A DNA stretch of 64,000 nt from Rhizophagus irregularis (Eukaryota), in assembly GCF_026210795.1 (NCBI RefSeq), contig NC_089433.1, positions 1,860,001-1,924,000 on the forward strand. Reading direction: 5' to 3'. The notes beneath the pieces are model-generated. The model saw only the letters and a list, made by a program, of their open reading frames with translations, searched no databases and had not been told where the DNA came from. Every line of letters starts with the position of its first letter. The stretch's first letter is position 1. Shown piece after piece: positions 414 to 34,079 of this stretch. The translations under genes and the position numbers were made by a program.

Positions 414-429
414 CACTGGTCAAAAACCA
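414..429 (-). repeat. Outermost copy of the left TIR end / LINE target-site duplication CACTGGTCAAAAACCA
   Basis: Identical 16-mer at 414, 1687 and 9864. Confidence 0.9.
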
Positions 430-1686
430 GGGTAAACATAGCATGAGCTTGAATTTTATTAATTAATGCCGAAGTAACTTTAGAGAAACACAGAGTGATC
501 TAAAAAGTACCGCAACAAGTGCAGAACTAATAGAAAAACAAAGAACAAATAATCTTCCGAAATTACAAATAAGAAAAGCTAAGATTAAAAACCCCACCCT
601 CTCTATATAAATAACTACGGCTACTCCCCCCAAATATATCTCAAAATGAGTAAAGTCGACTATGCTATACGTAACCCATCCAGCACCGTACCCACTCCTA
701 GAATCGGTAAAGAACCTCCGAGCTACCATTAGCACTATCAAAAACGCCTAAAATTCAATTTCCCCTATTTGACTACATACTATGGATAACAAACCTATTT
801 CACAAAGACCTCCGGGAACTTTTTAGTGTCGTGCAGTCCAGCCGATGGGGAACTTTTTAGTGTCGTGCAATCCCCAAAGGGACACCCACCTCATTTTGAA
901 CGATCCCAAACGGAGGACACCCACCTCATTGCGAACAATCCATCGACCTAAGATCTACCTAGATAAGTCAATCCAATGATAGTCCATCATGTGACCACCT
1001 TGATCGGCATACTACAAAAACTGCGGTACCCAACCTGTCACCCCCCTTATCACCCCAATGATGATCGATTTTGAAAATTGTAACACCAAGCCACCATGAC
1101 GATCAAATTTTCCAGTATCCCCCCACCCCCCAAAGAAAATAAGGTTACACCGAAAAAAGCGACCAAGAAAAACAAAAAGCAAAAAATAAAGACATAAACC
1201 TCAGGAAAACTCGAAGTGCAATGAGAAAAACCTGAGTAAAATTCACCAAACATACACCTCAACTCCGTCTCCTTATTTTAGAAGACTAACTCCCCAGTTA
1301 ACAACATCAACTAGCAAGAAATACGTTGGTCAGGAGCTCCTTCCAAGAAATACCGGTCCGGCCTGCGAACCATTTGGCCAGTTAGACTTTAAAGGCGTAG
1401 GAACCAAGACGCACTACTTTTCAACCTTTCAGAAAGCCCAGGGGAACGTTCGTATGGAACTGCCATCTTACAGTATTATTGGTAACTCCAAGACTCATGA
1501 TAACGGTCCTAACTCAATATAAGCCGTAAGGAGTTCGGGCGAAACTAAAGACCTCAGTAATAGCTTCATATAACGTCGAAAAGTCCTTTTACTATCACTC
1601 AAGGCAAAAAATCATCATATTTTTCATCCATAACTTCATGGGAAAAAATGGGCAGAGCCCAACGGGGGAGAAAGTACGATCATCAT
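430..1686 (-). mobile_element. Divergent ~1.26-kb retroelement (5'-truncated sister LINE or SINE-like element) inserted in the same TIR target
   Basis: Flanked by direct copies of the target 16-mer. Its 3' end (taataaaattcaagctcatgctatgtttaccct) resembles the LINE 3' end (taataaagataaaggctactatgccacatttgcct). It shares the tagcatagt motif ~230 nt upstream of the end. No convincing ORF. Short internal tandem duplications at ~813-875 and ~879-940. Confidence 0.65.
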
Positions 1687-1959
1687 CACTGGTCAAAAAC
1701 CAGGCAAATGTGGCATAGTAGCCTTTATCTTTATTAAATTTATTCGAACTTTACAATTTACAAAAAATAAAAAAGAAAATATAAAAATAAAACTAACTAA
1801 AAACAAAGCTATATAGTCTCCTAAGAAAAAATAAAGTAAAAAATTAATCTAAAAAGAAGAAAAATCGCATTACACTAAATTTCCCCAGATCTTCCCCCTT
1901 GATATATTCCAACCAAAGTAGAAGCAACTATGCTAACAAAATAACGAATAGCGCGCCCA

Positions 1960-4900
1960 CTATAGAAATCGACACTCCATCCTGCAAAAGCTGTTATTAA
2001 GTAGCACCGTTAGACGACCCATAAAACCCGAAAAGTGATTAAACCAAGGCAAACCATATTTCATCGAGTTCTTCAACCAATCGGTTCCGGAGTCACGTGA
2101 ATTGTGTAGGGTCGGAGGTGGTAAAGATGAGTAAGGTATGTACGTTGACAATGGCAAATTAGAAGGCTTCGGAGTAGTTTTCAACTTATAAGTAATATTC
2201 ATCGCGTTTTCCCATCTACTTTTCTCATAAGAACGCGGATTCCAAATTCGTTTTCTGAATTTTTGGACAAAATTATTATGAATAGCAGCGATAACCTAAA
2301 TCGCAGAGATTCTTGGAATAGACAAATCGACTAGGATGTCAATAAAAAGTGTAGGTAAACAACCACGGACAAGGGCGTATGAGGACCAATTTGTAGAAGA
2401 AAAGGACCAGCATGAAAGAGAAGTGAGTTTAGCAATAAAGGGAGTAGGATCAATATCAGCCAATTTTCCAGCTTCTTGAATTTTAGAAATCAAATGATTT
2501 TGATAAGATTGGAGAATTTGTTGCATAGGTAGACGACGTTTTTTGCACATAAAAAGGTGCATCAGGTCTTCCATGCGATCAATACAAGAACGGCAAGTTA
2601 ATTCGTCCATGTATAAGTCTGGTCGAGTCCGCTTAAGCTTTTCCAACGTGGGTAAGTCGTCCAAGAAAAGTTTGAATTTAAAGGTTAAGTGTCTTGAAGC
2701 ATGCTCAAGAGTAAAAGATGCATCATGAGAAGGCTTGAAATTCAAGGTAAACCAAGTTAGTTCCCAGTCGACAATATATTCTATATTAGATAATAATAAA
2801 GAAATAAAGTGAAATCGCGTTAAATTTAACAAATCACGCATTAACTGCGTTTGATAATACTGTTTAAGAAGGTGTCGTGAATTAGTTTCACAAACGGCGT
2901 CATTGTCGTAAGTCAAAACGAAATCATGGGCAGAAGCAAGGTCCATTCCAGAAATCAAAATACTGGATGATGCGGTATGGGCAGTATTGGCCAGGGAGTC
3001 AGCAAAATCGTTCAAATAATTGCCAGAATGAGCTTTAACTTTAACAGGAAGAACTGTCAAATTCTTGGTAAGGATAGTTCATTCAATAATGGCCCAAAGC
3101 TCAAAATTTGTTGTTTTGTAGTAAAGACGGCTATTTGAGTAGACATAGGAAGAGCAACTTCGAAGGCCATCAATGGCAGTTTGCGAGTCAGTATAAATAG
3201 TAACTTCTGAGTCGCGAGGAGAAATGGTTAAAACTGCGTAAATAGCGGCAGCTTCAGCACGAGAAGAAGAAGGGTTATCTCGAATGATGCCATGTGCATA
3301 AGTAGCAATGGAATTAGGAAAACCAGCATCAGGTACGATTTGCATCCAAGACCAGCCCATAGAAACATTAGGAGTGCCTAGATTAATAAGAGACCCATCA
3401 GTAAAAAAGATATAACGTGAGTCTGAAGACACAACCAACGGCGAATTTGCAAAAACAGCAGCAGCTGAGGATTCAATAGTGATAAGAGGAGCGGAAACTT
3501 CAACAATATCGTCAGGAGGAGAGTCAAAATCAAAATCCAATCGACTGTAATAAAGACGGACACCATCTTCTATATCAGCCTAGGTAAAAGGAGAGGATAC
3601 TGCAGAAGTATTACGTCTAATGCGCTCATTGATGGTGGGCAGAATAAGCGAATGTTGTAGAGAAACCGTAGGCGTACAAAGGGTTAAATCAGCATTCCGT
3701 TTTTTGGAAGGAGGCAAAGGAGTATGAGCAGCACAACCAGGGCAAGGAGAGAGTCTAATGAGATCACCAGGCGAAGATTCACAATCAGGAGAGACCCAGT
3801 GAACAATAGAACAAGTACCACGACTTGCTTGAACTAAAAGTTGTTTGCCAAAGATGGGAGAACCGTAGTCGTCTAACGTGACAATCCAATTTTTCGTAGT
3901 GGTAGGAGAGGACAGGCAAGGAGTCAATTCATAAAATGAAGAGTCAATCGTAGGCGTAGTAATGAACTGGGTCAGCAAACGATTGTTGGTGTCAGGAATG
4001 GTAGTAGCTTGCTGGATATCTTTATACCAATAAGGGATACAGCCAGGACCACGTCGTCCAACCAAATTGTCATAGTAGGCTTTCCAAGAAATTAAATGAG
4101 TCCCTTGGGGAGTAACAAGCTGAGATAGATAAAACAAATGCCGTTTTCGCAAAATAGGGAAATAGGCTTTAAATGCTTTAAGTGTCATGCATTCAAATAA
4201 GGGAACGCGTCCATCCATCAAAGTCAGGTTCGGAAGCTTCGAAAGTTGAGTATGAAGCAAACGAAAAGGAGTAGAGGATAAGAGAGCAATAGTGCATGCG
4301 ATATAATCTTTCTTAAAAGAAAAAGAGAAGACCATATAGACCAATCCTTAATTAAAAGGGGAGAAATAGGAATTAAAAAATTATATTGAATCAAACTCAA
4401 TCTATAAATAAAAAGAGATTGAATAAAAGAAAAGGAAGAATTAGCCATTAAAAATAAATTAGTAATATGACATTGTCGTTGATGAGCAAATAAATTTATC
4501 AAGCCCAAGGCTTGAGATAAAAATAAAATGGGATTTGGTAAAGAGCGAGAAAAATTTGCTTTATGCTTTACAACAGATCGTATACTTCTCGTTATTAGGT
4601 GGCAGTCAGATTCAGACAAGTGAGTAACTTGCATCCGGTATTCAAGTTTCGGTATAAGGACAGCATTATGTAAATAAACAACTTGTTTGGATGAGAGCTT
4701 TGCAGGGCGGATGGTTGCAGCGAAGGAGCAACATTCACGTTTGAGTTGCTTTTTGACAAAATCCCGGGAGTTTTTAATGTTGAACCAGACACCTAAAAAA
4801 CGAAAAGAAGTTGTCATGGAAATTGGGGTAATAGTAATGGAAGGAACACTATTTAAAGAGGATAAATCCAAGTTAAAAGTAATAGGGAGTAAAGTGGAAT

Positions 4901-7586
4901 TCGAAGTCAAGGGCAACGAATTAGTAATTAACACATATTTGTTATGATTGGCAGAAGTGTTATTAATTTGATAGAATTCTTCTGTAATGGATAACATAAA
5001 TTCCATGCCAGTCTTCGACGAGGAAATAAGAGTAGAGTTATCCATAAATACTAAATTATTAATCTTCAAATCGGAAGAAGGATTGGGAGAAGCAATTAAG
5101 GATGGTGTAGAAAGAACATAAGGGTCCATCATTTCATGCTTCATGACAGTAAGTAAGGGATCAATATAAATAACCCATAAGAGAGGAGAAATAACTTCGC
5201 CTTGGTCAATACCAATGCGAACCCTATAAGCAGGCGTAGATCCATGAGCAGTGAAAACGCTATTAATGCGTTTTGTGAAAAGGGAAAGAATAAACTTAAT
5301 AGCAGAAGCTGGAAGACGTATTCGTTCTAAAGCGAAACGTAACATTGTCAAATCAACCGAGTCAAAAGCTTTAGAAATGTCTTGAGAGAGAATCCAAAGT
5401 GGGTTTTTGTTGACATCAGCATCATGGATAATAGATTCTAGAGTAATAATAGGGTCGCGGCAAGAACCACCAGGAAGACCAGCGAAGTTACCACCTTTAA
5501 GAACATCATGTGTAGCCATAATAGTAGAAAGGCGATTATAAAAGAGTTTGACAAGAGATTTTCTAATCACTTCAAGTAAAGTAATAGGACGAGTATTTTT
5601 CAATTGACATTTCCATTCGTGAGGTTTGGGAATGGGAAAAACCATTGCCTGTCGCCATAAGTCAGGAATATCAGCTTTGGAAAGGCAAGCTTGAATTAAA
5701 ATAAGGAGTAGAGCCGAGGAACGAGATCCAAGGTGTTTGAGCATTTCATAAGTGATCATGGAAGGACCTGAGGCTTTACCGTTAGGAGTAGAAGAAACGG
5801 TGGTTAACCATTCATCAAGGGTAGGGGGATTCATTAAAGAATCATAGATGGAGGAGGGCACATCATCCATAGGTTGGTAAACAGAAGACCATCTATCAGG
5901 TAATGTATCTACAGATACAGGAGGAGTGGATTTTATAGGTACAAAGTTTTGGAAATGGTTAACAACAGCATCGTCTATATCCTTGGGAGCAGTTAATAAC
6001 TGAGGGCGAGTGGGATGATCAACAAAGACACGATCCAAAGTGATACGGCGGCGGGTGCGAGAAAGCGCTGAATCAATGAAAGAGGAAAGGTCGGTTTCAA
6101 AATTATTGTTCCTATCGTCCAAATGAGCACGAATGGAGGAATCTTGGAATTCTTTTTCTTGAAGTAAATGAAATCCCCGTAAGGATTTTGAAATATTGGA
6201 TAAATCATCAAGAAGTGACTTGAAATCATCTTGTCGACATGATGAGAGAGAAGAGGGCAAAGCAGGAACGAAAGTAAATACATTCTTATATAATTGCAAA
6301 ATGTTTTGAAGTCTGATTAAATGAATAGACCACTTATGTTCATGAGCGGCAGAATAAGTTAAAGGATATTTGCGCAATAAACGTATTGAATGCATAAGGC
6401 GATTTAAAAACCGATAATGTTGGGTTAAAATTTCCAGATCTTTAGGAACCTTAGGAGTATAATTATTGCCAACGGTGAAAGAAGGTAGTGTAACGTTGGC
6501 AGCTTTAAGAATTCGTGATTGGAGATATTCGCACATTTGATTGATATGCCAGGAGGAAAAGGTTGAAGGTGAGACGTCACATAAAGCATCAGCTTTATCA
6601 GCAAAATCCGTCCATTGAATTTCAGTTACAGAATCAAATTTGAAGACGCGACGGGTTCGGCGCTTAAGTTGTCGAGCGCGAGCCAATTTGGTAGAGGCAA
6701 AAAGTAAAGACATATCATAGTATGTTATGACGGGGTTATGATCAGATGTGCAAACATCTTGAGCATTAAAAATGCAAGCAGTAAGAGCAAATCCTTTGAG
6801 AAGAGGGCAGGACCATACATAATCAACTCGAGTAATGTGGTCATTGCGATGAAAGGTACCTAAGGAGTCGGAAAGATTAATAGGAGTATAGTCTTCATAT
6901 CCGTGAGAGAGGAGATGAAAAAATAATCGGTGAATATGTTTTGAAGCAACTTGAGGTTGATTGAAGTAAATAGGGTAATATTTGTCTAAATGCATATTAA
7001 AATCGCCACAAACAGCATGGTAAAAGCCAGCATGTTTAGTAAGGGTAAGTTGTTGAATGAGCAAATCAATAGTATCAGTGCGCAGAACACTTTCAGCAGG
7101 GGGAGGGATATAAATAACAAATATACGCAATTTAATATTGCCTTTGAAATATAAATCAACAGAAAGTAACCGTGAAGAATGCGATTTAAAATCTTGAACA
7201 TGTGAAGCAAGGGAATTTTCTATAAAAAGAGAAACACCACCAGAAGAGAGAATTTGTTTAGAAGTATCCAAATTAGAAGAGAACACAGTATAATTAGAAA
7301 TACGTTTGGATAAAAACTTCATTTGTTTAGGGTGAAGATGAGTATCCACGATACCACCAAAGGAAATATGTTTTAAGGAAAAGAAAGTAGAAATTTCTTC
7401 TAATTTAGTCTGACCATACATTTTAAGGCCATTAACATTAAAGGAAGAAATATTAAATGAATTGGGGATAGGGGAAGTGTTACTGGAAGAGGAAAATAAC
7501 GATTCATGCGAAAAAATTCCAGTAACATTGTCAGGGTTGGGAGGGTTTCGTACAAAGGTATCATAATTAAAATTATTGTTCGACAT
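1960..7586 (-). pseudogene. LINE copy 1 ORF2 (APE endonuclease, reverse transcriptase, RNase H, C-terminal zinc finger), disrupted
   Basis: SFNVNGL, GDFN and SDHNPV (APE); QDISKAFDSV and GIDQGEVISPLL (RT), with catalytic FMDD changed to FMDN; FTDGS, YTDSQ and VKAHSG (RNase H); CRSC..EDLMHLFMC. Split over five ORFs by stops and frameshifts. Confidence 0.93.
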
Positions 7587-7636
7587 TAAAACACAATGAT
7601 ATAAACAGTCGGGGAGTTAAAATTTGAAGAAAGAAA

Positions 7637-9753
7637 TTAATTGGAAGAAGCTGAATCAGCTTGTTCCAGGGGAGCACCACCAAGGGAGCCAATGAATTGC
7701 TTGATATGACCAGTAAGTTGGTCCTATTTACTTTTAATAGCGACACGACTATTTTTGAGATCATTAATTTCTTCTTGTGTGGAGGAGATGGGAGTAAAAG
7801 GAGGAGCATTTGGAGAAAGGTGAGAAGAAGGAGGTGATGTGTCAGGAACAATAGTGAATGTAGGCGAAGGTCGCGTTAAAATACTTTTGGGAGGCAGCGA
7901 AGATTTAGCGGAAGACAGAATATTAAGAGGAACATGAGTTACAGGGGCATCTTCTTGCATGAGGTCCGGTTCAGGTTCATTGGGTATAGGGAGTGGATCA
8001 AGGCCAAGGTGTGATTCAATACGAGTCATCCGTTGGTCAGCAAGTTCAAGAGCGGAGATGCGTTTGTGAAAGTTAGCAACTTCACATTGTAATTCTCGTA
8101 AAAGGTTTAGAATGTTGTTAGCATCATCAGGAGATAATGCAAAGTTAGGAGTTTGTCGGGGTAAGGGACGTGCTGTAGAACGAGAGGAGGAAGAAAAGGA
8201 GACAGATCGTTCTTTACTATTATGGCGGGCACGTTGAGAAGTATTGGGAGGGGGTTTGTTATGATTACTATTATCATTATTAGTGCGGTCATGGGAAGCG
8301 TTATTGGCTCGTCCAGAATTGGAAGCAGATCGATCTTTAGATTTGGAGCGAGATCGAGAGCGAGAACGTGCATTGGCAATATTAGAATTGGAGCGAGGTT
8401 GATTAACATTGAATCGTTCTTTGAGTTTTGCAACAGGGTCGCAAGTGCGGCTTCTACCTCTGGTTTGTTTGAGTGGGCAAAAATTAGGAGCACAACCTAG
8501 TTTGCCACATCTGTGACAAAGTTTATTAGTATTATCGGGGAGGACCAGAAAAGCACTTTGCCTTGGAAGCTAACAGTCTGTTCCATAGCAGCATCCATGG
8601 TTTCTTGGGAGTTGAAGGTGACATAGGCCCATCTTTTGGGTTTGTAGGAATTTAAAGAAAGAGGAACATTGACAGCTTTTGCACCAAAATCGCGTGTAAG
8701 AGGAGCCAAGTTGATATCCTTAACATTGGGAGGAAGTTGAGTGAGGGTGGCAACGTATTGACGGCGCGCAGCCTTTTGATCCACAGTATAGAAACATGGA
8801 GTAATTCGGAGACAGGTGGAGAAACAGTAAACAGCCCATTGGTCGGTAAAACGAGCAATTGAATCGGCGTGATCATACACAATACGGGCTTGCTGGACTT
8901 TAGCATTAGGCCTGGAGAAGAGGCGACAAGAGGTAATATTACCAAATTTTTTGAAATAGGCCATGAGGTTGTCCTTTTTGATAAAGAAAGGGATATCGGT
9001 AACTTGGATAGCCTGGAGATCTTCATTGGATCGGAGTTGGCGAGGGTCATGGGCATGAAAGATTAAGTCAGGGAACTCAGGATGGGTGGAACCAACGCAC
9101 AAATCGCGTGCTTCAGCGGTATGGAAGTGGATAACGAGGCGTTTAGCCTCACCAGAACCTGTCATACAAGCTTTTCCAGTGAATGACTCGTACGTTTCTA
9201 AGAAAAGGTTATTCACAGCCTCAATAAGGGCTTTATTGGTAGGGAATTTCTTGAGTGATTCAGGGGCAGCATTCGGCGCAGCCGCAGCCTGAAAATCATC
9301 TCTGGTTATGGCAAAGGTCACCACTGGATCTGGGGTTTGATCGCCATCAGGAGCACCATTAGTATTCAAATTGGGCGACGCGTTAGGGGGTTGTTGCAAG
9401 TCTTTGTTTGAAGGTGCATGCATGGACGCGTCCACATTTCCAGAAGACGCGACGTGACTGGGCGCAGTTGGCACAGCAGATCTTTTCGGGGAGGAGGCCA
9501 AAGTATTTTCGCCAGAGATATTTTGTTGAGGAGAAGAGGAAGGTCCATCTACTCCAACGTCAGCCGTCTGGTCATCGGCAACGTAGTCTTCTTCCATAGA
9601 ATTTTCGGTAATCGTACGATTACGTTTCTGCTGGATAGTGTTTTCGCCATCGGAGCTTCGAATTATCGGAGTTGTTATTATTTTTCCGTTCTTGACGGGA
9701 AGCTTTCCTACTGTTAGGGTTATGGCTTCCGCGCCTTCTCGCTATTAGGACAT
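7637..9753 (-). pseudogene. LINE copy 1 ORF1 (gag-like nucleic-acid-binding protein), frameshifted
   Basis: Fragments 8497-9597 and 7724-8029 match ORF1 of the plus-strand copies. RRM-like motifs are present. Confidence 0.88.
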
Positions 9754-10107
9754 AGTAGAGGGCTTCGAGTTAATATATAAAATATAAAATTTTATTAGTA
9801 GCTTGTATTATTTTTTAATAATAAAAAATTAATTTCGTCAGAAAATTTCGTTTTTGAAAAATTCACTGGTCAAAAACCAATATATTGGGTAGCAGATATG
9901 TATCAGATATGTACCCGATATGTGTAGTATTAATGCAGAAAATCGGGTACCCGATATGTGTAAGATATATGTAAATATATATATCATATATATATCGGGT
10001 ACCGATATATATATGATATGTAAATAATATGTAGACGATATATATATTTACACATATCTTACATATATCGGGTACCCGATTTTCTGCATTAATACTACAC
10101 ATATTGG

Positions 10108-10863
10108 TAGGGATGGTAAAGTCCTAAGTCCTGGACCTAAAGACCTGGTCCTAGGACCTGGTCTGCAGATCTTTAGGTCCAAATTTTGGACCAGAAGCGG
10201 ACCAGGTCCTAAAAAGTCCTAGCCAATAAGGTTATAAGAGATCTATATGTTTAAATTATATATGTATAATTTGCTGTAAATTTGATTTTAAGTAATTATA
10301 AATTATAAAAAAGTGCACTGCAATATTGCAATACAATTTTTATATTATTAAAATCATATAAAAAATGAGTTGCGATATTGCGATTCACATTTTTATATTA
10401 ATATCAATATAAAAAAGTGAATCGCGATACCGCAACTCACTTTTTTTATATAAAATCAATATAAAAAAGTGAATCGCGATACCGCAACTCACTTTTTTTT
10501 ATATAAAATCAATATAAAAAAGTGAATCCCGATACCGCAACTCACTGTTTTTATATAAAATCAATATAAAAAAGTGAATCCCGATACCGCAACTCACTTT
10601 TTTTATATAAAATCAATATAAAAAAGTGAATCCCGATACTGCAACTCACTTTTTTTATATAAAATCAATATAAAAAAGTGAATCCCGATATCGCAACTCA
10701 CTTTTTTTGTATTTAATTATTACTAAAATTCATAAAATCTATAAATAACTTAGTCAGGACCAGGTCCAGGACTGGTCCTAACAGGACTGGTCCGCAGGTC
10801 CGTTCAATAGGACTTATAGGTCCTAGGACCAGGACCGGATCAGGACCGACCTAACCATCCCTA
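10108..10863. mobile_element. hAT-type MITE (756 bp) nested in the CACTA MITE
   Basis: TIR TAGGGATGGT...ACCATCCCTA. 8-bp TSD catattgg/catatcgg (1 mismatch). Subterminal GGACC/GGTCC motifs. Confidence 0.88.
10340..10710. repeat. Tandem repeat, ~52-53-bp unit, about 6-7 copies, each with an internal inverted repeat
   Basis: Unit tataaaaaagtgaatcccgataccgcaactcacttttttttatataaaatcaa. Confidence 0.9.
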
Positions 10864-10921
10864 CATATCGGGTACATATCTGATACATATCTGCTACCCG
10901 ATATATTGGTTTTTGACTAGT

Positions 10922-13732
10922 TCCCGGGATTTTGTCAAGAAACAACTCAAACGTGAATGCTGCTCCTTCGCTGCAACCATCCGCCCTGCAAAGCTCTCAT
11001 CCAAACAAGTTGTTTATTTACATAATGCTGTCCTTATACCGAAACTTGAATACCGGATGCAAGTTACTCACTTGTCTGAATCTGACTGCCACCTAATAAC
11101 GAGAAGTATACGATCTGTTGTAAAGCACAAAGCAAATTTTTCTCGCTCTTTACCAAATCCCATTTTATTTTTATCTCAAGCCTTGGGCTTGATAAATTTA
11201 TTTGCTCATCAACGACAATGTCATATTACTAATTTATTTTTAATGGCTAATTCTTCCTTTTCTTTTATTCAATCTCTTTTTATTTATAGATTGAGTTTGA
11301 TTCAATATAATTTTTTAATTCCTATTTCTCCCCTTTTAATTAAGGATTGGTCTATATGGTCTTCTCTTTTTTCTTTTAAGAAAGATTATATCGCATGCAC
11401 TATTGCTCTCTTATTCTCTACTCCTTTTCGTTTGCTTCATACTCAACTTTCGAAGCTTCCGAACCTGACTTTGATGGATGGACGCGTTCCCTTATTTGAA
11501 TGCATGACACCTAAAGCGTTTAAAGCCTATTTCCCTATTTTGCGAAAATGGCATTTGTTTTATCTATCTCAGCTTGTTACTCCCCAAGGGACTCATTTAA
11601 TTTCTTGGAAAGCCTACTATGACAATTTGGTTGGACGACGTGGCCCTGGCCGTATCCCTTATTGGTACAAAGATATTCAACAAGCTACCACTATTCCCGA
11701 CTCCAATAATCGTTTGATGGATCAGTTTAATTTTACGCCTACGATTGACTCTTCCTTTTATGATTTGACTCTTTGTTTATCTTCTCCTCCTACTACAAAA
11801 AATTGGATTGTCACGTTAGACGACTACGGTTCCCCCATCTTTGGCAAACAACTTTTAGTTCAAGCAAGTCGTGGTACTTGTTCTATTGTTCACTGGGTCT
11901 CTCCTGATTGTGAATCTTCGCCTGGTGATCTCATTAGACTCTCTCTTTGCCCTGGTTGTGCTGCTCATACTCCTTTGCCTCCTTCCAAAAAACGGAATGC
12001 TGATTTAACCCTTTGTACGCCTACGGTTTCTCTACAACATTCGCTTATTCTGCCCACCATCAATGAGCGCATTAGACGTAATACTTCTGCAGTATCCTCT
12101 CCTTTTACCTGGGCTGATATCGAAGATGGTGTCCGTCTTTATTACAGTCGATTGGATTTTGATTTTGACTCTCCTCCTGATGATATTGTTGAAGTTTCCG
12201 CTCCTCTTATCACTATTGAATCCTCAGCTGTTGCTGTTTTTGCAAATTCGCCGTTGGTTGTGTCTTCAGACTCACGTTATATCTTTTTTACTGATGGGTC
12301 TCTTATTAATCTAGGCACTCCTAATGTTTCTATGGGCTGGTCTTGGATGCAAATCGTACCTGATGCTGGTTTTCCTAATTCCATTGCTACTTATGCACAT
12401 GGCATCATTCGAGATAATCCTTCTTCTTCTCGTGCTGAAGCTGCCGCTATTTACGCAGTTTTAACCATTTCTCCTCGCGACTCAGAAGTTACTATTTATA
12501 CTGACTCGCAAACTGCCATTGATGGCCTTCGAAGTTGCTCTTCCTATGTCTACTCAAATAGCCGCCTTTACTACAAAACAACAAATTTTGAGCTTTGGGC
12601 CATTATTGAACGAACTATCCTTACCAAGAATTTGACAGTTCTTCCTGTTAAAGTTAAAGCTCATTCTGGCAATTATTTGAACGATTTTGCTGACTCCCTG
12701 GCCAATACTGCCCATACCGCATCATCCAGTATTTTGATTTCTGGAATGGACCTTGCCTCTGCCCATGATTTCGTCTTGACTTACGACAATGACGCCGTTT
12801 GTGAATCTAATCCACGACACCTTCTTAAACAGTATTATCAAACGCAGTTAATGCGTGATTTGTTAAATTTAACGCGATTTCACTTTATTTCTTTATTATT
12901 ATCTAATATAGAATATATTGTCGACTGGGAACTTACTTGGTTTACCTTGAATTTCAAGCCTTCTCATGATGCATCTTTTACTCTTGAGCATGCTTCAATA
13001 CACTTAACCTTTAAATTCAAACTTTTCTTGGACGACTTACCTACATTGGAAAAGCTTAAGCGGACTCAACCAGACTTATACATGGACGAATTAACTTGCC
13101 GTTCTTGTATCGATCGCATGGAAGACCTGATGCACCTTTTTATGTGCAAAAAACGTCGTCTACCTATGCAACAAATTCTCCAATCTTATCAAAATCATTT
13201 GATTTCTAAAATTCAAGAAGCTGGAAAATTGGCTGATATTGATCCTACTCCCTTTATTGCTAAACTCACTTCTCTTTCATGCTGGTCCTTTTCTTCTACA
13301 AATTGGTCATCTTACGCCCTCGTCCGTGGTTGTTTACCTACACTTTTTATTGACATCTTAGTCGATTTGTCTATTCCAAGATTCTCTGCGATTAAGGTTA
13401 TCGCTGCTATTCATAATAATTTTGTCCAAAAATTCAGAAAACGAATTTGGAATCCGCGTTCTTATGAGAAAAGTAGATGGGAAAACGCGATGAATATTAC
13501 TTATAAGTTGAAAACTACTCCGAAGCCTTCTAATTTGCCATTGTCATCGTACATACCTTACTCATCTTTACCACCTCCGACCCTACACGATTTACGTGAC
13601 TCCGGAACCGATTGGTTGAAGAACTCGATGAAATACGGTTTGCCTTGGTTTAATCATTTTTCGGGTTTTATGGGTCGTCTAACGGTGCTACTTAATAACA
13701 GCTTTTGCAGGATGGAGTGTCGATTTTTATAG
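10922..13732 (+). pseudogene. LINE copy 2 ORF2 C-terminal half (RNase H, zinc finger), open but 5'-truncated
   Basis: ORF 10913-13732 is uninterrupted. Its apparent start lies in the target sequence. Confidence 0.9.
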
Positions 13733-13990: not shown

Positions 13991-14005
13991 TGGTTTTTGA
14001 CTAGT

Positions 14006-22900: not shown

Positions 22901-25587
22901 TTGAATACCGGATGCAAGTCACCCACTTGTCTGAATCTGACTGCCACCTAATTACGCGAAGTATAAGATCTGTTGTAAAACACAAAGCAAATTTTTCTCG
23001 TTCTTTACCCAATCCTATTTTATTTTTATCTCAAGCCTTAGGCTTGATTAATTTGTTTGCTCATCAACGACAATGTCATATTACTAATTTATTTTTAATG
23101 GCTAATTCTTCTTCTTTTTTTATTCAATCTCTTTTTATTTATAGATTGAGTTTGATACAATATAATTTTTTAATTCCTATTTCTCCTCTTTTAATTAAGG
23201 ACTGGTCTATATGGTCTTCTCTTTTTTCTTTTAAGAAAGATTATATCGCTTGCACTATTGCTCTCTTATCTTCTACTCCTTTTCGTTTGCTTCATACTCA
23301 ACTTTCGAAGCTTTCGAACCTAACTTTGTTGAATGAACGCGTTCCTTTATTTGAATGCATGACACCTAAAGCTTTTAAAGCTTATTTCCCTATTTTGCGA
23401 AAACGTCAATTGTTTTATCTATCTCAGCTTGTCACTCCCCAAGGAACTCATTTAATTTCCTGGAAAGCCTATTATGATAATTTGGTTGGACACCGTGGCC
23501 CTGGCCGTATCCCCTACTGGTATAAAGACATCCAGCAAGCTACCACTATTCCTGACACCAATAATCGTTTGCTGGCTCAGTTTATTGCTTCGCCCGCAAT
23601 TGACTCTTCATTTTATGAATTGGCTCCTTGTATATCCTCTCCTTCCACTACAAAAAATTGGATTGTCACGTTAGATGACTACGGCTCTCCCCTCTTTGGC
23701 AAACAACTTTTGATCCAAGCAAGCCGTGGTACTTGTTCTATTGTCCATTGGATTTCTCCTGATTGTGAATCTTCACCTGGTGATCTCATTAGACTTTCTC
23801 CTTACCCTGGTTGCGCTGCTCATACTCCTTTGCCTCCTTCCAAAAAACGGAATGCTGATTTAACCCTTTGCACGCCTACGGTTTCTCTACAACATTCGCT
23901 TATTTTGCCCACCACCAATGAGCGAATTAGACGTAACACTTCTGAAGTGACTTCTTCTTTTACTTGGGCTGATATAGAAGATGGTGTCCGTCTTTATTAT
24001 AGTCGATTGGATTTTGATTTTGACTCTCCTTCTGAAGATATTGTTGAAGCTTTTACTCCTCCTATCACTATTGAATCCTCAGCTGCTGCTGTTTTTGCAA
24101 ATTCCCCGTTAGTTGTGTCCTCGGACTCACGTTATATCTTTTTCACTGATGGGTCCCTTATTAATCTAGGCACTCCTGATGTTTCTATGGGCTGGTCCTG
24201 GATGCAAATTGTTCCAGATGCTGGTTTTCCCAACTCCATTGCCACTTATGCTCATGGCCTTATTCGAGATAATCCTTCTTCTTCTCGAGCTGAAGCTGCC
24301 GCTATCTACGCAGTTTTAACCATTTCCCCTCGTGACTCAGAAGTTACTATTTATACTGACTCGCAAACTGCCATTGATGGCCTTCGAAGTTGCTCTTCCT
24401 CTGTCTACTTGAACAGTTGTTTGTACTATAAAACTTCTAATTTCGAGCTTTGGGCTATTATTGAACGAACCATCCTTTCCAAGAATTTGACAGTTTTTCC
24501 TATCAAAGTTAAAGCTCACTCTGGCAACTATTTAAATGATTTCGCTGATTTCTTGGCCAACACTGCTCATACCGCACCATCCAGTATTTTGATTTCTGGA
24601 ATGGACCTAGCCTCTGCCCATGATTTTGTTTTAACTTATGACAATGATATAGTTTGTGAATCTAATCCCCGACACCTCCTCAAACAATATTATCAAACGC
24701 AGTTAATGCGCGATGTGTTAAATTTAACGCGATTCCATTTTATTTCTCTATTAACATCTAATATAGATTATATTGTCGATTGGGAACTTACTTGGTTTAC
24801 TTTGAATTTCAAGCCTTCTCATGATGCATCCTTTACTTTAGAGCATGCTTCAAGACACCTAACCTTTAAATTTAAACTTTTCTTGGATGATTTACCCACA
24901 TTGGAAAAGCTTAAGCGGACTCGGCCAGACTTATACATGGACGAATTAACTTGCCGTTCTTGTATCGACCGCATGGAAGACCTAATGCACCTTTTTATGT
25001 GTAAAAGACGTCGTTTACCTATGCAACAAATTCTCCAATCTTATCAAAACCATTTGATTTCTAAAATTCAAGAAGCTGGAAAATTGGCTGATATTGATCC
25101 TACTCCATTTATAGCTAAACTCACTTCTCTTTCATGCTGGTCCTTTTCTTCTACAAATTGGTCCTCTTACGCCCTAGTCCGTGGTTGTTTACCTAAACTT
25201 TTTATTGACTTATTTGTCGATTTATCTATTCCAAGAATCTCTGCGATTAAGGTTATCGCTGCTATTCATAACAATTTTGTTCAAAAATTCAGAAAACGAA
25301 TTTGGAATCCGCGTTCTTATGAGAAAAGTAGATGGGAAAACGCGATGAATATTACCTATAAATTGAAAACTACTCCGAAGCCGTCTAATTTGCCATTGTC
25401 GATGTACATACCTTACTCATCTTTACCACCTCTGACCCTACACGATTCATGTGACTCCGGAACCGATTGGTTAAAAAACTCGATGAAATTTGGTTTGCCT
25501 TGGTTTAATCACTTTTCGGGTTTTATGGGTCGTCTAACGGTGCTACTTAATAACAGCTTTTGCAGGATGGAGTGTCGATTTTTATAG
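19960..25587 (+). pseudogene. LINE copy 4 ORF2 (1875 codons; APE-RT-RNase H-zinc finger), two in-frame stops
   Basis: Single frame from ATG 19960 to stop 25587, with TGA at 20617 and TAA at 21025. All catalytic motifs are recognisable. Confidence 0.93.
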
Positions 25588-26003
25588 TGGGCGCGCTGTT
25601 CGTTATTTTGTTAGCATAGTTGCTTCTACTTTGATTGGAATATATCAAGGGGGAAGATCTGGGGAAATTTAGTGTAATGCGATTTTTCTTTTTTAGATTA
25701 ATTTTTTTACTTTATTTTTTCTTAGGAGACTATATAGCTTTGTTTTTAGTTAGTTTTATTTTTATATTTTTCTTTTTATTTTTTGTAAATTGTAATGTTC
25801 GAATAAATTTAATAAAGATAAAGGCTACTATGCCATGTTTGCCTGGTTTTTAACTAGCAGTGGTTTTTGATTAGTAACTCTCTCCTGAATTTTTCAAAAA
25901 CGAAAATTTCTGACGAAAATAATTTTTTATTATTTTTAAAAAATAATACAAGCTACTAATAAAATTTTATATTTTATATATTCCCAACTCAAAGCCCTCT
26001 ACT

Positions 26004-28127
26004 ATGTCTGGTAACTATGCCAAGAGAGGCCGTGGAAGTCATAACCCTAACAGTAGGAAAGCTTCCCGTCAAGAACAAAAAAATAATAATAACTCCGATA
26101 ATTCAAGCTCCGATGGTGAAAACACTATCCAGCAGAAACGTAATCGTACGATTACTGAAAATTCTATGGAAGAAGACTACGTTGCCGATGCCCAGACGGC
26201 TGACGTTAGAGTAGATGGACCTTCCTCTTCTCCTCAACAAAATATCTCTGGCGAAAATACTTTGACCTCCTCCCTGAAAAAATCTGCTGCGCCAACTGCG
26301 CCCAGTCACGTCGCGTCTTCTGGAAATGTGGACGCGTCCATGCATGCACCTTCAAACAAAGACTTGCAACAACCCCCTAACGCGTCGCCTAATTCAGATA
26401 CCAATGGTGCTCCAGATGGCGATCATACTCCAAATCCAGTGGTGACTCTCGCCATAACCAGAGATAATTTTCAGGCTGCGGCTGCGCCGAATGCTGCCCC
26501 TGAATCTCTCAAGAAATTCCCTACCAATAAAGCCCTTATTGAGGCTGTGAATAACCTTTTTTTAGAAACATACGAGTCATTCACTGGAAAAGCTCGTATG
26601 ACTGGTTCTGGTGAGGCTAAACGCCTCGTTATCCACTTCCATACCGCTGAAGCACGCGACTTGTGCGTTAGTTCCACTCATCCCGAGTTCCCTGACTTGA
26701 TCTTTCATGCTCATGACCCTCGCCAACTCCGATCCAATGAAGATCTCCGGGCTATCTAAATTACAGATATCCCTTTTTTTATCAAAAAGGATAACCTCAT
26801 GGTCTATTTCAAAAAATTTGGTAATATTACCTCTTGCCGCCTTTTCTCCAGTTCTAATGCCAAAGTCCAACAAGCCCGTATTGTTTATGATCACGCCGAT
26901 TCAATTGCTCGTTTTACCGATCAATGGGCTGTATACTGTTTCTCCACCTGTCTTAGAATTACTCCATGTTTCTATACTGTGGATCAAAAGGCTGCGCACC
27001 GTCAATACGTTGCTACCCTCACTCAACTTCCCCCCAATGTTAAGGATATCAACTTGGCTCCTCTTACACGTAACCTTGGCGCAAAGGCTGTCAATGTCCC
27101 GCTTTCTTTAAATTCCTACAAACCCAAAAGATGGGCCTATGTCACCTTCAACTCCCAAGAGACCATGGATGCTGCTATGGAACAGACTGTCAGCTTCCAA
27201 GGCAAAGTGCTTTTCTGGTCCTCCCCCGATAATACTAATAAACTTTGTCACAGATGTGGCAAATTAGGTTGTGCTCCCAATTTTTGCCCACTCAAACAAA
27301 CCAGAGGTAGAAGTCGCACTCGCGACCCTGTTGCAAAACTCAAAGAACGATTTAACGTTAATCAACCTCGTCGTTCCAATTCTAATACTGTCAATGCAAG
27401 TTCTCGCTCTCGATCTCGTTCCAAATCTAGAGATCGATCTGCTTCTAATTCTGGACGTGCCTATAGCATTTCCCACGACCGCACTAATAATGATAATAAT
27501 CATAACAAACCCCCTCCCAATACCTCCCAACGTGCCCGCCATAATAGCAAAGAACGATCGGTCTCCTTTTCTTCCTCCTCTCGTTCTACAGCACGTCCCT
27601 TACCCCGACAGACTCCTAACTCTGCATTATCTCCTGATGATGCTAATAACATTTTAAACCTTTTGCGAGAATTACAATGTGAAGTTGCTAACTTTCACAA
27701 ACGCATCTCCGCTCTTGAACTTGCTGACCAACGGATGACTCGTATTGAATCACACCTTGGCCTTGATCCACTCCCTCTGCCCAATGAACCTGAACCGGAC
27801 CTCATGCAAGAAGATGCCCCTATAACTCACGTTCCGCTTAATATCCAATCTTCCGCTAAATCTCCACTGGCTCCTAAAAGCATTTTAGCGCGACCCTCGC
27901 CTACCTTCACTATTATCCCTGACACTTCTCTTCCTTCTTCTCACTTTTCTCCAAATGCTCCTCCCTTTACTCCTATCGCCTCCACGCAAGAAGAAATTAA
28001 TGATCTCAAAAATAGTAGAGTCGCCATTGAAAGCAAATTAGACCAACTTACTGGTCATATCAAACAATTCATTGGCTCCCTTGGTGGTGCTCCCCCGAAA
28101 CAAGCTGATTCAGCTTCTTCTGTTTAA
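26004..28127 (+). pseudogene. LINE copy 5 ORF1, one in-frame stop
   Basis: ORFs 26004-26759 and 26799-28127 are in the same frame. Confidence 0.9.
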
Positions 28128-28176
28128 TTTTCTTCTTTAACTTTTACTTCCCGACTGTTTTTATCATTGTGTTTTA

Positions 28177-31100
28177 ATGTCGGACAATAATTTTAAATAT
28201 GATACCTTTGTACGAAACCCTCCCAATCCTGATAATGTTACTGATATTTTTTCACATGAATCGTTGTTTTTTTCCCCCAGTAACACTTCCCCTATCCCCA
28301 ATTCATTCAATATTTCTTCTTTTAATGTTAATGGCCTTAAAATGTATGGTCAGACTAAATTAGAAGAAATTTCTACTTTCTTTTGTTAAAACATATTTCT
28401 TTTGGTGGTATTGTTGATACCCATCTTCACCCTAAACAAATGAAGTTTTTATCCAAACGTCTTTCTAATTATACTGTGTTCTCTTCCAATTTGGATACTT
28501 CTAAACAAATTCTTTCTTCTGGCGGTGTTTCTCTTTTTATAGAAAATTCTCTTGCCTCACATGTTCAAGATTTTAAATCCCATTCTTCACGATTACTCTC
28601 TGTTGATTTATATTTCAAAGGCAATGTTAAATTGCGTATATTTGTTATCTATATCCCTCCCCCTGCTGAAAGTGTTTTGCGCACTGATACTATTGATTTG
28701 CTTATTCAACAACTTATCCTTACTAAACAAGCTGGTTTTCACCATGCTGTTTGTGGCGATTTTAATATGCATTTAGATAAATATTACCCTATTTATTTTA
28801 ATCAACCCCAAATTGCTTCAAAACATATTCACCGATTATTTTTTCATCTCCTTTCTCATGGATATGAAGACTATACTCCTGTTAATCTTTCCTACTCTTT
28901 AGGCACCTTTCATCGCAATGACCAAATTACTCGTGTTGATTATGTATGGTCCTGTCCTCTTCTTAAAAGATTTGCCCTTACTGCTTGCATTTTTGATGCT
29001 CAAGACATCTGCACATCTGACCATAACCCTGTCATCACATACTATGATATGTCTTTACTTTTTGCCTCTACTAAATTGGCTCGCGCTCGTCAACTCAAGC
29101 GCCAAACCTGTCGCATTTTCAAATTTGATACTGTAATTGATATTCAATGGACAGAATTCGCTGACAAAGCTGATGCTTTATGTGATGTCTTACCTTCAAC
29201 TTTTTCCTTCTGGCATATCAATCAAATGTGCGAATATCTCCAATCGCGCATCCTTAAAGCCGCCAACGCTACTTTACCTTCTTCTACTGTTGGCAACAAT
29301 TATACTCCTAAGGTCCCTAAAGATCTGGAAATCTTAACTCAACACTATCGGTTCTTAAATCGCCTAATGCATTCGATACGTTTACTGCGCAAATATCCTT
29401 CTTCTTATTCTGCTGCTCATGAACATAAGTGGTCTACTCATTTAATTAGACTTCAAAACATTTTGCAATTATATAAGAAAGTTTTTACTTTCGTTCCTAC
29501 TTTGCCCTTTTCTCTTTCATCATGTCGACAAGATAATTTTAAGTCACTTCTCGATGATTTATCCAATATTTCAAAATCCTTACGGGGATTTCATTTGCTT
29601 CAAGAGAAAGATTTTCAAGATTCATCCATCCGTGCTCACTTGGACGATAGAAATAATAATTTTGAAACGGACCTTTCTTCTTTCATTGAGTCAGCGCTTT
29701 CTCGTACTCGCCGCCGTATCACCTTGGATTGTGTCTTTATTGATCATTCTACTCACCCTCAGTTGTTAACTGATCCTAAGGACATTGATGATGCTGTTGT
29801 TAACCATTTCCAAAACTTTGTACCTATAAAGTCCACTCCTCCTGTATCTGTAGATACATTGCCTGATAGATGGTCTTCTGCCTACCAACCCATGGATGAT
29901 GTGTCCTCCTCCATCTATGATTCTTTAATGAATCCTCCTACCCTTGACGAATAGTTAACCACTGTTTCTTCTACTCCTAACGGTAAAGCCTCTGGACCTT
30001 CCATGATTACCTATGAAATGCTCAAGCATCTTGGATCCCGTACCTCGGCTCTACTCCTCATTTTAATTCAAGCATGCCTTTCCAAAGCTGATATTCCTGA
30101 TTTATGGCGCCAAGCAATGGTTTTTCCCATTCCCAAACCTCATGAATGGAAATGTCAATTGAAAAATACTCGTCCTATTACTTTACTTGAAGTGATTAGA
30201 AAGTCTCTTGTCAAACTTTTTTATAATCGCCTTTCTACTATTATGGCTTCACATGATGTTCTTAAAGGTGGTAACTTCGCTGGTCTTCCTGGTGGTTCTT
30301 GTCGAGACCCTATTATTACTCTAGAATCTATTATCCATGATGCTGATATCAACAAAAATCCACTTTGGATTCTTTCCCAAGACATCTCTAAAGCTTTCGA
30401 CTCGGTCGATTTGACGATGTTACATTTTGCTCTAGAACGAATACGCCTTCCAGCTTCTGCTGTTAAGTTTATTCTTTCCCTCTTCACAAAACGCATTAAT
30501 AGCGTTTTTACTGCTTATGGATCCACGCCTGCTTATAGGGTTCGCATTGGTATTGACCAAGGCGAAGTTATTTCTCCTCTTTTATGGGTTATTTATATTG
30601 ATCCTTTACTGACTGTCTTGAAGAATGAAATGATGGATCCTTATGTTCTATCTACACCTTCCTTAATTGATTCTCCAAATCCTTCTTTCGATTTGAAGAT
30701 TAATAATTTAGTATTTATGGATGACTCTACTCTTATTTCCTCGTCGAAAGTTGGCATGGAATTTATGTTATCCATTACAGAAGAATTTTATCAGATTAAT
30801 AACACTTCTGCTAATTATAGCAAATATGTGTTAATTACTAATTCGTTGCCTTTGACTTCGAATTCCACTTTATCTCCTATCACTTTTAATTTGGGTTTAT
30901 CCTCTTTAAATAATATTCCCTCCATTACTATTACCCCAATTTCTATGACAACTTCTTTTCGTTTTTTAGGTGTTTGGTTTAATATTAAAAGCTCCCGGGA
31001 TTTTGTCAAAAAACAACTCAAACGCGAATGTTGCTCGTTCGCTGCGACCATCCGCCCTGCAAAGCTCTCTCCCAAACAAGTTGTATACTTACATAATGCT

Positions 31101-33802
31101 TTTTTATACCGAAACTTGAATACCGGATGCAAGTCACGCACTTGTCTGAATCTGACTGCCACCTAATTACGCGAAGTATACGATCTGTTGTAAAACACAA
31201 AGCAAATTTTTCTCGTTCTTTACCCAATCCCATTTTATTTTTATCTCAAGCTTTAGGCTTGACTAATTTGTTTGCTCATCAACGACAATGTCATATTGCT
31301 AATTTATTTTTAATGGCTAATTCTTCTTTTTCTTTTATTCAATCTCTTTTTATTTATAGATTGAGTTTGATACAATATAATTTTTTAATTCCTATTTCTC
31401 CTCTTTTAATTAAGGACTGGTCTATATGGTCTTCTCTTTTTTCTTTTAAGAAAGATTATATCGCATGCACTATTGCTCTCTTATCTTCTACTCCTTTTCG
31501 TTTGCTTCATACTCAACTTTCGAAGCTTCCGAACCTAACTTTGTTGAATGGACGCGTTCCTTTATTCGAATGCATGACACCTAAGGCCTTCAAAGCGTAT
31601 TTTCCTATTTTGCGAAAACGTCAATTGTTTTATCTATCTCAGCTTGTCACTCCCCAAGGAACTCATTTAATTTCCTGGAAAGCCTATTATGATAATTTGG
31701 TTGGACGACGTGGCCCTGGCCGTATCCCCTATTGGTATAAAGACATCCAGCAAGCTACCACTATTCCTGACACCAACAATCGTTTGCTGGCTCAGTTTAT
31801 TGCTACGCCTACGATTGACTCTTCATTTTATGAATTGGCTCCTTGCACATCCTCTCCTCCCACTACTAAAAATTGGATTGTCACGTTAGACGACTACGGC
31901 TCTCCCTCTTTTGGCAAACAGCTTTTGGTCCAAGCAAGTCGTGGTACTTGTTCTATTGTCCATTGGATTTCTCCTGATTGTGAATCTTCACCTGGTGATC
32001 TCATTAGACTTTCTCCTTGCCCTGGTTGCGCTGCTCATACTCCTTTGCCTCCTTCCAAAAAACGGAATGCTGATTTAACCCTTTGCACGCCTACGGTTTC
32101 TTTACAACATTCGCTTATTTTGCCCACCACCAATGAGCGAATTAGACGTAACACTTCTGAAGTGACTTCTTCTTTTACTTGGGCTGATATAGAAGATGGT
32201 GTCCGTCTTTATTATAGTCGATTGGATTTTGATTTTGACTCTCCTTCTGAAGATATTGTTGAAGCTTTTACTCCTCCTATCACTATTGAATCCTCAGCTG
32301 CTGCTGTTTTTGCAAATTCCCCGTTGGTTGTGTCCTCGGACTCACGTTATATCTTTTTCACTGATGGGTCCCTTATTAATCTAGGCACTCCTGATGTTTC
32401 TATGGGCTGGTCCTGGATGCAAATTGTTCCAGATGCTGGTTTTCCCAACTCCATTGCCACTTATGCTCATGGCCTTATTCGAGATAATCCTTCTTCTTCT
32501 CGAGCTGAAGCTGCCGCTATTTACGCAGTTTTAACCATTTCCCCTCGCGACTCAGAAGTTACTATTTATACTGACTCGCAAACTGCCATTGATGGTCTTC
32601 GAAGTTGCTCTTCCTCCGTCTACTTGAATAGTCGTTTGTACTATAAAACTTCCAATTTTGAGCTTTGGGCTATTATTGAACGGACCATCCTTTCCAAGAA
32701 TTTGACAGTTCTTCCTGTCAAAGTTAAAGCTCACTCTGGCAACTATTTAAATGATTTCGCTGATTCCTTGGCCAACACTGCTCATATTGCGTCATCCAGT
32801 ATTTTGATTTCTGGAATGGACCTAGCCTCTGCCCATGATTTTGTTTTAACTTATGACAATGATATAGTCTGTGAATCTAATCCACGACACCTCCTCAAAC
32901 AATATTATCAAACGCAATTAATGCGTGACTTGTTAAATTTAACGCGATTTTACTTTATTTCTTTATTATCATCTAATACAGATTATATTGTTGACTGGGA
33001 ACTTACTTGGTTCACTTTGAATTTCAAACCTTCTCATGACGCATCTTTTACTCTCGAGCACGCTTCAAGACATTCAACCTTTAAATTCAAACTCTTCTTG
33101 GATGATTTGCCTACATTGGAAAAGCTTAAACGGACCCGACCAGACTTATACATGGACGAATTAACTTGCCGTTCTTGTATCGACCGCATGGAAGATTTGA
33201 TGCACCTTTTTATGTGCAAAAATCAGCGCTTGCCTATGCAACAAATTTTACAATCTTACCAAAATCATTTGATTTCCAAAATTCTGGAAGCCGGTAAATT
33301 GGCTAACGTTGATCCTACTCCATTTATTGCTAAACTCACTTCTCTTTCATGCTGGTCCTTTTCTTCTACAAATTGGTCCTCCTTTGCCCTTGTCCGTGGT
33401 TGTTTACCCAAACTTTTTATCGACTTACTTGTTGACTTATCCATTCCAAGAATTTCTGCGATTAAGGTTATCGCTGCTATTCACAATAATTTTGTTCAAA
33501 AATTCAGAAGACGAATTTGGAATCCGCGTTCTTATGAAAAATGTAGATGGGAAAACGCGATGAATATCACCTATAAGTTGAAAACTACTCCGAAGCCATC
33601 TAATTTGCCTTTGTCAATATACGCACCTTACTCATCTTTACCACCTCCGACCCTACACGATTCACGTGACTCCGGAACCGATTGGTTGAAAAACTCGATG
33701 AAATATGGTTTGCCTTGGTTTAATCACTTTTCGGGTTTTATGAGTCGTCTAACGGTGCTACTTAATAACAGCCTTTGCAGGATGGAGTGTCGATTTTTAT
33801 AG
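28177..33802 (+). pseudogene. LINE copy 5 ORF2, two frameshifts and one stop
   Basis: Four consecutive ORF fragments reconstruct APE-RT-RNase H-zinc finger. Confidence 0.92.
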
Positions 33803-34079
33803 TGGGCGCGCTGTTCGTTATTTTGTTAGCATAGTTGCTTCTACTTTGGTTGGAATATATCAAGGGGGAAGATCTGGGGAAATTTAGTGTAATGCGATTT
33901 TTCTTTTTTTTAGATTAATTTTTTTACTTTATTTTTTCTTAGAAGACTATATAGCTTTGTTTTTTAATTAGTTTTATTTCTATATTTTTCTTTTTATTTT
34001 TTTTTGTAAATTGTAAAGTTCGAATAAATTTAATAAAGATAAAGGCTACTATGCCACGTTTGCCTGGTTTTTGACTAGT

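Follow-up and report, generated by a model that had tools for sequence, protein, structure and literature searches.

When retroelements are stacked against the tips of another mobile element, do the short sequences repeated at their junctions belong to the retroelement or to the DNA into which it inserted? This question is raised by a 64,000-nucleotide stretch of the Rhizophagus irregularis genome (NCBI RefSeq assembly GCF_026210795.1, contig NC_089433.1, positions 1,860,001 to 1,924,000 of the forward strand; hereafter, the window), in which copies of a long interspersed nuclear element (LINE) and a non-coding element, termed element B, surround a small CACTA-type DNA element, termed the core. 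The analysis points, with good probability, to a Rhizophagus LINE encoding an APE endonuclease, a reverse transcriptase and an RNase H which, with its non-coding partner, stacks outward at both CACTA tips, flanked by copies of the tip that carry the local allele. The most likely route is an endonuclease nick about 15-16 bases inside the tip, followed by target-primed reverse transcription that duplicates the tip.

The core measures 1.06 kb and is non-coding, and of its terminal inverted repeats (TIRs) the left one starts with CACTG and the right one with [C]ACTA. From both of its tips the retroelements point outward with their 5' ends toward the core, forming mirror-image arrays. The left arm consists, moving outward, of LINE copy 1 and then element B, and the right arm of LINE copies 2 to 7; the 3' part of copy 7 and the outer right motif are missing from the window. 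The long open reading frames (ORFs) of the window are parts of this LINE, namely an ORF1 with an RRM domain and an ORF2 with APE endonuclease, reverse transcriptase and RNase H (Pfam matches RVT_1, Exo_endo_phos_2 and RNase_H). The nearest database match was P0003 from R. irregularis (cluster of 113 members), with 97% identity; among the matches listed (120 of 145), every protein came from R. irregularis or R. clarus. Divergent families of ORF2 homologues, at 51-80% identity, were present in these species among the same matches, and several homologues agreed in the length of their longest contig (for example, 2,006,788 bases), a hint of clustered arrays in the reference strain. A short motif that forms the TIR tip recurs at the junctions in two forms, the C and T alleles. 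The features of the two arms are as follows, with identities relative to P0003.

414..429, minus strand: outermost motif of the left arm, C allele, still abutting what is presumably the original flank
430..1686, minus strand: element B, a 1257-bp multi-copy non-coding element with a LINE-like 3' tail
1687..1702, minus strand: duplicated motif, C allele, joining the 3' end of copy 1 to the 5' end of element B
1703..9863, minus strand: LINE copy 1, near full length (10 nt short at 5'), young subfamily; ORF1 RRM, ORF2 APE-reverse transcriptase-RNase H, broken (97.2%, 3 stops)
9864..9879, minus strand: left TIR tip, the target motif, C allele; also 5' junction of LINE copy 1
9864..10921, no strand assigned: core, a non-autonomous DNA element of CACTA/EnSpm type, TIRs about 60 bp; right inner tip without its terminal base
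10907..10921, plus strand: right TIR tip, the target motif, T allele; also 5' junction of LINE copy 2
10922..13990, plus strand: LINE copy 2, 5'-truncated, 3069 bp, young subfamily (97.6%)
13991..14005, plus strand: duplicated motif, T allele
14006..17653, plus strand: LINE copy 3, 5'-truncated, 3648 bp, nearest relative of copy 1 (98.1%)
17654..17669, plus strand: duplicated motif, T allele, complete CACTA end
17670..25843, plus strand: LINE copy 4, near full length, middle tier (93.4%)
25844..25875, plus strand: doubled motif (AACT variant, CAG, GATT variant), second copy possibly donor-derived
25876..34064, plus strand: LINE copy 5, full length, middle tier, 3' part mosaic (93.3%)
34065..34079, plus strand: duplicated motif, T allele
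34080..36739, plus strand: LINE copy 6, 5'-truncated, old tier, with an insertion of about 200 bp (86.2%)
36740..36754, plus strand: motif, GATT variant, then AGT repeats
36755..48775, plus strand: LINE copy 7, old tier, interrupted by three inserted DNA elements (90.3%)

With one mismatch allowed, the pattern TGGTTTTTGAYYAG was found in 10 copies, compared with 0.14 expected, and 0/100 shuffled sequences reached 10. The minus-strand motifs with plus-strand starts at 414, 1687 and 9864 read TGGTTTTTGACCAGTG, and those at 10907, 13991, 17654 and 34065 read TGGTTTTTGACTAGT. These seven positions had been named in an earlier reading of the same DNA (the original prediction), and all were correct; three further right-arm copies were added at 25844 (AACT), 25861 (GATT) and 36740 (GATT), all with T at the diagnostic position. 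The predicted division by arm also held, with C in 3/3 left motifs and T in 7/7 right motifs. Position 414 had been counted among the LINE junctions; its coordinate was right, but the motif there ends element B. Two of the ten motifs, 9864 and 10907, are the TIRs themselves, and a third is the additional one beside the copy 5 5' end, which leaves two independent 3' junctions on the left and five on the right. Arm was associated with allele across these junctions (Fisher p 0.048, one locus).

The allele follows the arm and cuts across the LINE tree, since copy 1 (left, C) is nearest to copy 3 (right, T). Over 2456 ungapped columns, copy 1 diverged from copy 3 by 1.18% and from copy 2 (T) by 2.65%, while copies 4 and 5 lay 7.9-9.0% from copies 1-3 and copy 6 lay at 12.6-12.8%. 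Within the right arm itself, copies 4-6 diverged by 8.1-12.7% from copy 3 or copy 2. The 700 columns adjoining the motif gave the same ranking (copy 3 lay 7.4% from copy 6 and 1.4% from copy 1). Copies 1, 2 and 3 have 65 diagnostic sites in common within the 2456 columns and yet end in different alleles, as had been predicted. On the left arm, element B, which is unlike the LINE except in its tail, is flanked by the C allele on both sides.

Other loci were represented by Logan contigs, aligned to 380-1900 from 4 of 24 listed sequencing runs (24 of 464 loose-end rows) and to 9810-9945 from 3 runs (18 of 33 rows). At 9861-9864, TIR tips abutted other sequence in at least 7 rows (14 contigs) from 3/3 runs. 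The single-contig flanks tested had no match in the window (3/3) and are therefore not pieces of the LINE or of element B. Copies of the core TIR were dispersed, with varied flanks, in the contigs of 3 runs. LINE 3' ends that diverge from the motif once its first T is passed (position 1702) were found in runs X1 (2 contigs), X2 (4) and X4 (4), and none was found for X15 among the rows listed. Thus, contigs at other loci show the tip without the LINE and the LINE end without the tip. Further joints of a TIR to a LINE 5' end were seen in X1 and X15 (1 contig each), and one X4 row (4 contigs, agreement 0.63) ran from an element B tail into a motif variant. The left junction of the window locus was bridged by X1 and X2 contigs; none was listed for X15, which is uninformative.

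Summed contig depth over the TIR (9875-9924) was about 20,000-44,000 in X1, 184,000-438,000 in X2 and 141,000-277,000 in X15, compared with 1,357, 7,500-22,800 and 4,300-6,000, respectively, over the LINE 5' end. Depth being no copy number, these values are a hint that most TIRs are without a full-length LINE. All 7/7 3' ends of the LINE and element B in the window lie at the motif, and motif-free ends occurred in 3/4 runs; targeting of the tip by the LINE appears to be preferential, not absolute. Collection scans returned 0 matches in viral contigs; two metagenome matches and one genome match were rejected, since they lay in bacterial coding sequence rich in GC and BLAST showed no similarity between them and the window.

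Because the allele follows the arm, the tip occurs without the LINE and LINE 3' ends occur without the motif, the motif is best read as target DNA, most likely a target-site duplication (TSD), as the original prediction had proposed. We consider it very probable that the motif at the 3' junctions is duplicated target and not LINE. If the motif were instead the 3' end of the LINE, copied from a donor, the arm pattern would be due to chance or to different donors. The small sample (p 0.048 or 0.17) and the recurrence of the GATT variant with one LINE 5' type speak for such an origin, but it is very unlikely given that the sister copies 1 and 3 differ in allele, that two unlike left-arm elements both match the left TIR, that the motif is the tip of a free-standing TIR, and that LINE 3' ends without the motif exist.

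The geometry of the junctions is consistent with insertion by target-primed reverse transcription. Retained LINE 3' ends coincide (6/6), and copies 2, 3 and 6 begin at three different internal points. With element B included, the position of the 3' joint is identical at 7/7 3' ends, in keeping with the predicted first-strand priming site just inside the TIR. The inferred first nick is constant to within 1 base, since the motif-free 3' ends also keep the first T, which may be the LINE's. No poly(A) or simple-repeat tail was present at the six LINE 3' ends or at that of element B (7/7 total); such tails are common in APE-type LINEs, though not universal. All six LINE copies with both ends are flanked by repeats of 14-17 bp (17, 16, 15, 14, 14 and 15 bp for copies 1-6), and element B by repeats of 16 bp; at copies 1-4 and 6 the last 1-3 bases of the repeat could be the LINE's, so that microhomology blurs these lengths. 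This range departs from the fixed stagger of about 15-16 bp that had been predicted. Cleavage of the second strand at the TIR tip, also predicted, does not fit copy 2, whose duplicated site was already without the terminal G; the second cut therefore looks to be set by its distance from the first nick. The available text of PMC2881922 describes a downstream second nick as giving rise to a TSD and states that where this nick falls is for the most part unknown; the geometry observed here matches that route.

In the proposed sequence of events, the bottom strand would be nicked at AAAAACC^AATAT, or one base further in, and reverse transcription would be primed at the tail-less LINE 3' end. The top strand would then be cut 14-16 bases downstream, at a point given by distance and not by the tip, and the 5' end would be joined through microhomology of 1-3 bases. 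Integration of LINE circles by crossover within the motif was rejected because the 5' truncations fall at three different points.

The full LINE 5' end starts AACTCTCTCCTG, with AGT-type bases before it in the contigs. Copies 1 and 4 are ten 5' bases short and are joined via a shared TG. Copies 5 and 7 are the only ones with a complete 5' end, and the GATT motif adjoins both; at the 5' end of copy 5 the motif is doubled, and at that of copy 7 there are three AGT units. For this reason the 5' junctions may carry donor-derived motif, and the original choice between target duplication and part of the LINE, while right for the 3' motif, was too sharp for the 5' junctions of copies 5 and 7. These two cases suggest that full-length transcripts can bring a donor motif to the 5' junction; alternatively, independent C-to-T changes may lie behind the GATT variant at both copies.

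LINE RNA that runs past its 3' end into the motif might also pair with the nicked target through this stretch, which would fix precisely where reverse transcription starts but would not itself be copied. We give such read-through-guided priming somewhat less than an even chance; it may modify rather than exclude target-primed duplication of the tip, since the local DNA allele would be unchanged. The lack of poly(A) and the identical joint at 6/6 LINE 3' ends and at that of element B are consistent with it, and complete 5' ends with a GATT motif or AGT repeats beside them suggest that flanking target is part of the transcripts. In the accessible text of PMC6530143, retrotransposition of R2Ol, which resembles this LINE in its precise, tail-less 3' joints at a fixed target, is raised by read-through RNA annealing to the target. 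On the other hand, an AATAAA 25-30 bases upstream of the LINE 3' end is compatible with ordinary processing, and motif-free LINE 3' ends exist. R1Bm reportedly uses read-through-assisted priming at a fixed target; both R1Bm and R2 have rDNA as their target, and the nuclease of R2 is restriction-like.

Both P0003 and copy 1 retain intact APE motifs, GDFN and SDH. The top Foldseek matches of the endonuclease model were to human L1 endonuclease; the model is of low confidence (pLDDT 56), with pLDDT <50 across the region of the specificity loop (residues 197-261), and the domain sequence gave a single weak match against the PDB. The intact motifs bear on a further explanation, in which breaks made by CACTA transposase at the tip are repaired by capture of LINE cDNA, so that the transposase picks the site. 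The duplication does end at the tip or <=2 bases from it, and endonuclease-independent priming at free DNA ends is mentioned in the accessible text of PMC2881922. Nevertheless, this explanation is highly improbable in view of the intact APE motifs, of the constant joint 15-16 bases inside a tip that is duplicated, not lost, of the insertions that went on after loss of the terminal base, and of a sibling CACTA element in the window that has a different tip and a LINE at 0/2 ends.

The order of copies within the arrays is also graded. From the core outward on the right arm, identity to P0003 was 97.6, 98.1, 93.4, 93.3, 86.2 and 90.3% (rho -0.89, exact one-sided p 0.017), and copy 1, innermost on the left, was 97.2% identical. 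The old-tier copies carry nested insertions. CpG counts were lowest in copies 6 and 7; the differences are small and were given no weight. Since the younger copies are innermost, whereas equal motif targets would give a random order, the interior of the TIR appears to improve the target. The motif copy adjacent to the core, whose inner neighbour is TIR and not LINE tail, would be preferred, and older copies would be pushed outward.

Arrays of this kind could instead be built by unequal crossing-over or gene conversion within each arm, which would also homogenise the motif and leave few junctions as records of insertion. Mosaic tracts in copies 5 and 2 and the close similarity of the neighbouring copies 4 and 5, which are only 3.8% apart over the 5' 5.2 kb, fit that account. 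It is nonetheless quite unlikely, given the three different truncation points in copies 2, 3 and 6, the unlike elements that are neighbours on the left arm, and the sequence adjacent to the motif, which is not homogenised in the right arm (7.4% between copies 3 and 6, against 1.4% between copies 3 and 1). The mosaic tracts, at approximately 32700-33400 in copy 5 and 11300-11600 in copy 2, did not group with the nearest relatives of those copies, which suggests conversion or template switching among LINE copies.

Several points weigh against insertion targeted to the tip. The allele test rests on a single locus, and for the main LINE family alone, with one left and five right junctions, the Fisher p is 0.17. 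The GATT variant at the two full-length 5' ends follows the type of LINE end, not the arm, and three of the duplications contain one mismatch. The low-confidence endonuclease model is silent on specificity. The contig evidence comes from the rows listed (24 of 464 and 18 of 33), and consensus rows built from several contigs agree only at 0.54-0.85. As copies 5 and 2 are mosaic, the right-arm copies may be non-independent insertions; the p value for polarity rises to 0.033-0.17 once copies are merged, and the identity of copy 7 was taken over a different part of the element from that of copy 6.

The non-coding partner of the LINE was characterized in the same way. Element B has stops in all three sense frames, and tblastn against 122 proteins gave only two weak matches (E 3.5e-4 and 6.7e-4). 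Many divergent contigs along its length in 4/4 runs mark it as multi-copy. When compared with the LINE tail, its last 35 nt outscored 976/976 background windows; for longer tails, 1/969 background windows scored as high at 60 nt and 0/943 at 150 nt. A 3-bp hairpin folds at matching positions in the two tails and differs in one pair, both sides of which have changed; alone, this is weak evidence. Neither an Rfam match to E 1 nor a tRNA was found that could supply an RNA-gene head, and since such a head is missing, element B was not classed as a classical SINE (short interspersed nuclear element). Collectively, these data suggest that element B is likely a trans-mobilised, non-autonomous partner of the LINE, which would be mobilised via the 3' tail that the two have in common; a long 3' untranslated region of another, unseen LINE family is the alternative. 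Assignment of element B to PlavakaB was rejected because its ends do not read CATCA..TGATG.

The core itself has the CAC..GTG termini and TIRs of its class, with a complete right-arm CACTA end at 17669. Neither the core nor the remainder of the window contains an EnSpm transposase. Its own TSD of 2-3 bp is unreadable because the outer right flank is missing from the window. With the C allele (9864-9879), the motif forms a short palindrome (TGGT-N5-ACCA) that gains one pair at LINE junctions; with the T allele, one pair becomes a G-U wobble. The terminal base of the inner right TIR is missing (10921-10922), and 9.4 kb separate the outer left tip from the remainder of its TIR; for these two reasons the core may be immobilised. 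Four further insertions lie within the old-tier copies.

About 36187-36388: insertion of about 200 bp in copy 6, CACAC ends
37020-37263: 244-bp TIR element in copy 7, 8-bp TSD
39109-42431: second CACTA-type element, inside copy 7, with a perfect 16-bp TIR, a 3-bp TSD and a 131-134-bp satellite within
43850-47017: hAT element in copy 7, DUF659 and Dimer_Tnp_hAT domains, 8-bp TSD

The second CACTA-type element is the sibling mentioned above, with no LINE at either end; its tip, CACTAGTCGAAAAAGG, is related to that of the core. Fungal EnSpm elements have CAC..GTG ends and a 3-bp TSD according to the available text of PMC12730594. The core likewise has CAC..GTG ends and its sibling a 3-bp TSD, while the core differs from the elements described there in that its transposase is missing. 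The left flank at 76-411 is a satellite 75-85% identical to the array inside the sibling, and the core therefore probably landed in another CACTA-type element. Copy 7 ends abruptly at 48775 and is followed in 48776-64000 by AT-rich tandem arrays (73, 158 and 187 bp, and a duplication of about 2.9 kb); that segment contains no remainder of the LINE, the core or the satellite.

An ORF2 without RNase H is a feature of the Tx1 clade, and Tx1L, which is not known to carry RNase H, inserts internally. Since ORF2 here carries RNase H, the LINE was not filed as Tx1; against the PDB, its matches to human L1 and R2 scored alike, and the atlas matches name no clade. The strategy itself has precedents. 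Tx1L is specific for the non-autonomous piggyBac element Tx1D of Xenopus (cited in the available text of PMC4494074 and PMC6719617); both cases involve an APE-type LINE specific for a non-autonomous DNA transposon, and they differ in the superfamily of the host element and in the RNase H of ORF2 here. In crocodilians, Tx1-Mar LINEs and SINEU-3 insert into Mariner-N4_AMi, with an expected TSD of 16 bp and tandems that sandwich the TSD (PMC4494074, accessible text). That system is alike in pairing a LINE with a non-autonomous partner, in its abundant DNA-transposon target and in its incomplete preference. It differs in belonging to the animal Tx1 clade, in the snRNA-derived head of its SINE and in its many insertions near Mariner position 240, whereas the present system occurs in a fungus and has both TIR tips of the DNA element as its target, its arrays mirror each other, and its element B has neither a tRNA nor an Rfam head.

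In R. irregularis, L1-Tx1, SINE and CMC families are present according to the accessible text of the transposable element survey PMC11075540. LINE targeting of CACTA tips is not mentioned in the available parts of that paper (with one supplement) or of PMC8647823, both on Rhizophagus transposable elements. No description of a LINE that targets CACTA TIR tips was found in the searched literature, which was mostly listings; Repbase, the curated library of PMC11075540 and subscription journals may hold the family. What appears new is a fungal LINE and partner stacked at both TIR tips with young copies innermost, the strategy being that of Tx1L/Tx1D and Tx1-Mar/SINEU-3. This locus is likely a fungal case of one mobile element using the ends of another as a landing pad.

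If an arbuscular mycorrhizal fungus harbours a LINE with a sequence preference, large mirror-image repeat blocks would be explained as ordered records of insertion, and a new APE endonuclease with a defined target of 15-16 bases would become available. The TIRs differ by C/T and so provide a natural marker by which junction bases derived from the target can be told from those derived from RNA, and because of it the second-strand cut's position and read-through priming are testable from genomes alone. Insertions at the tips likely also change the mobility of the host DNA transposon. In a bolder joint reading, which we consider speculative and rather unlikely, the LINE and its partner have become specialists for TIR tips in a CACTA family of great abundance, read the TIR interior so as to insert always innermost, are guided by read-through RNA of the tip, and disable their host by separating its outer 16-bp end and trimming its inner end. 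If this were true, one transposon would restrain another within a genome that has long been clonal, and the arrays would preserve an ordered, readable record of LINE subfamilies.

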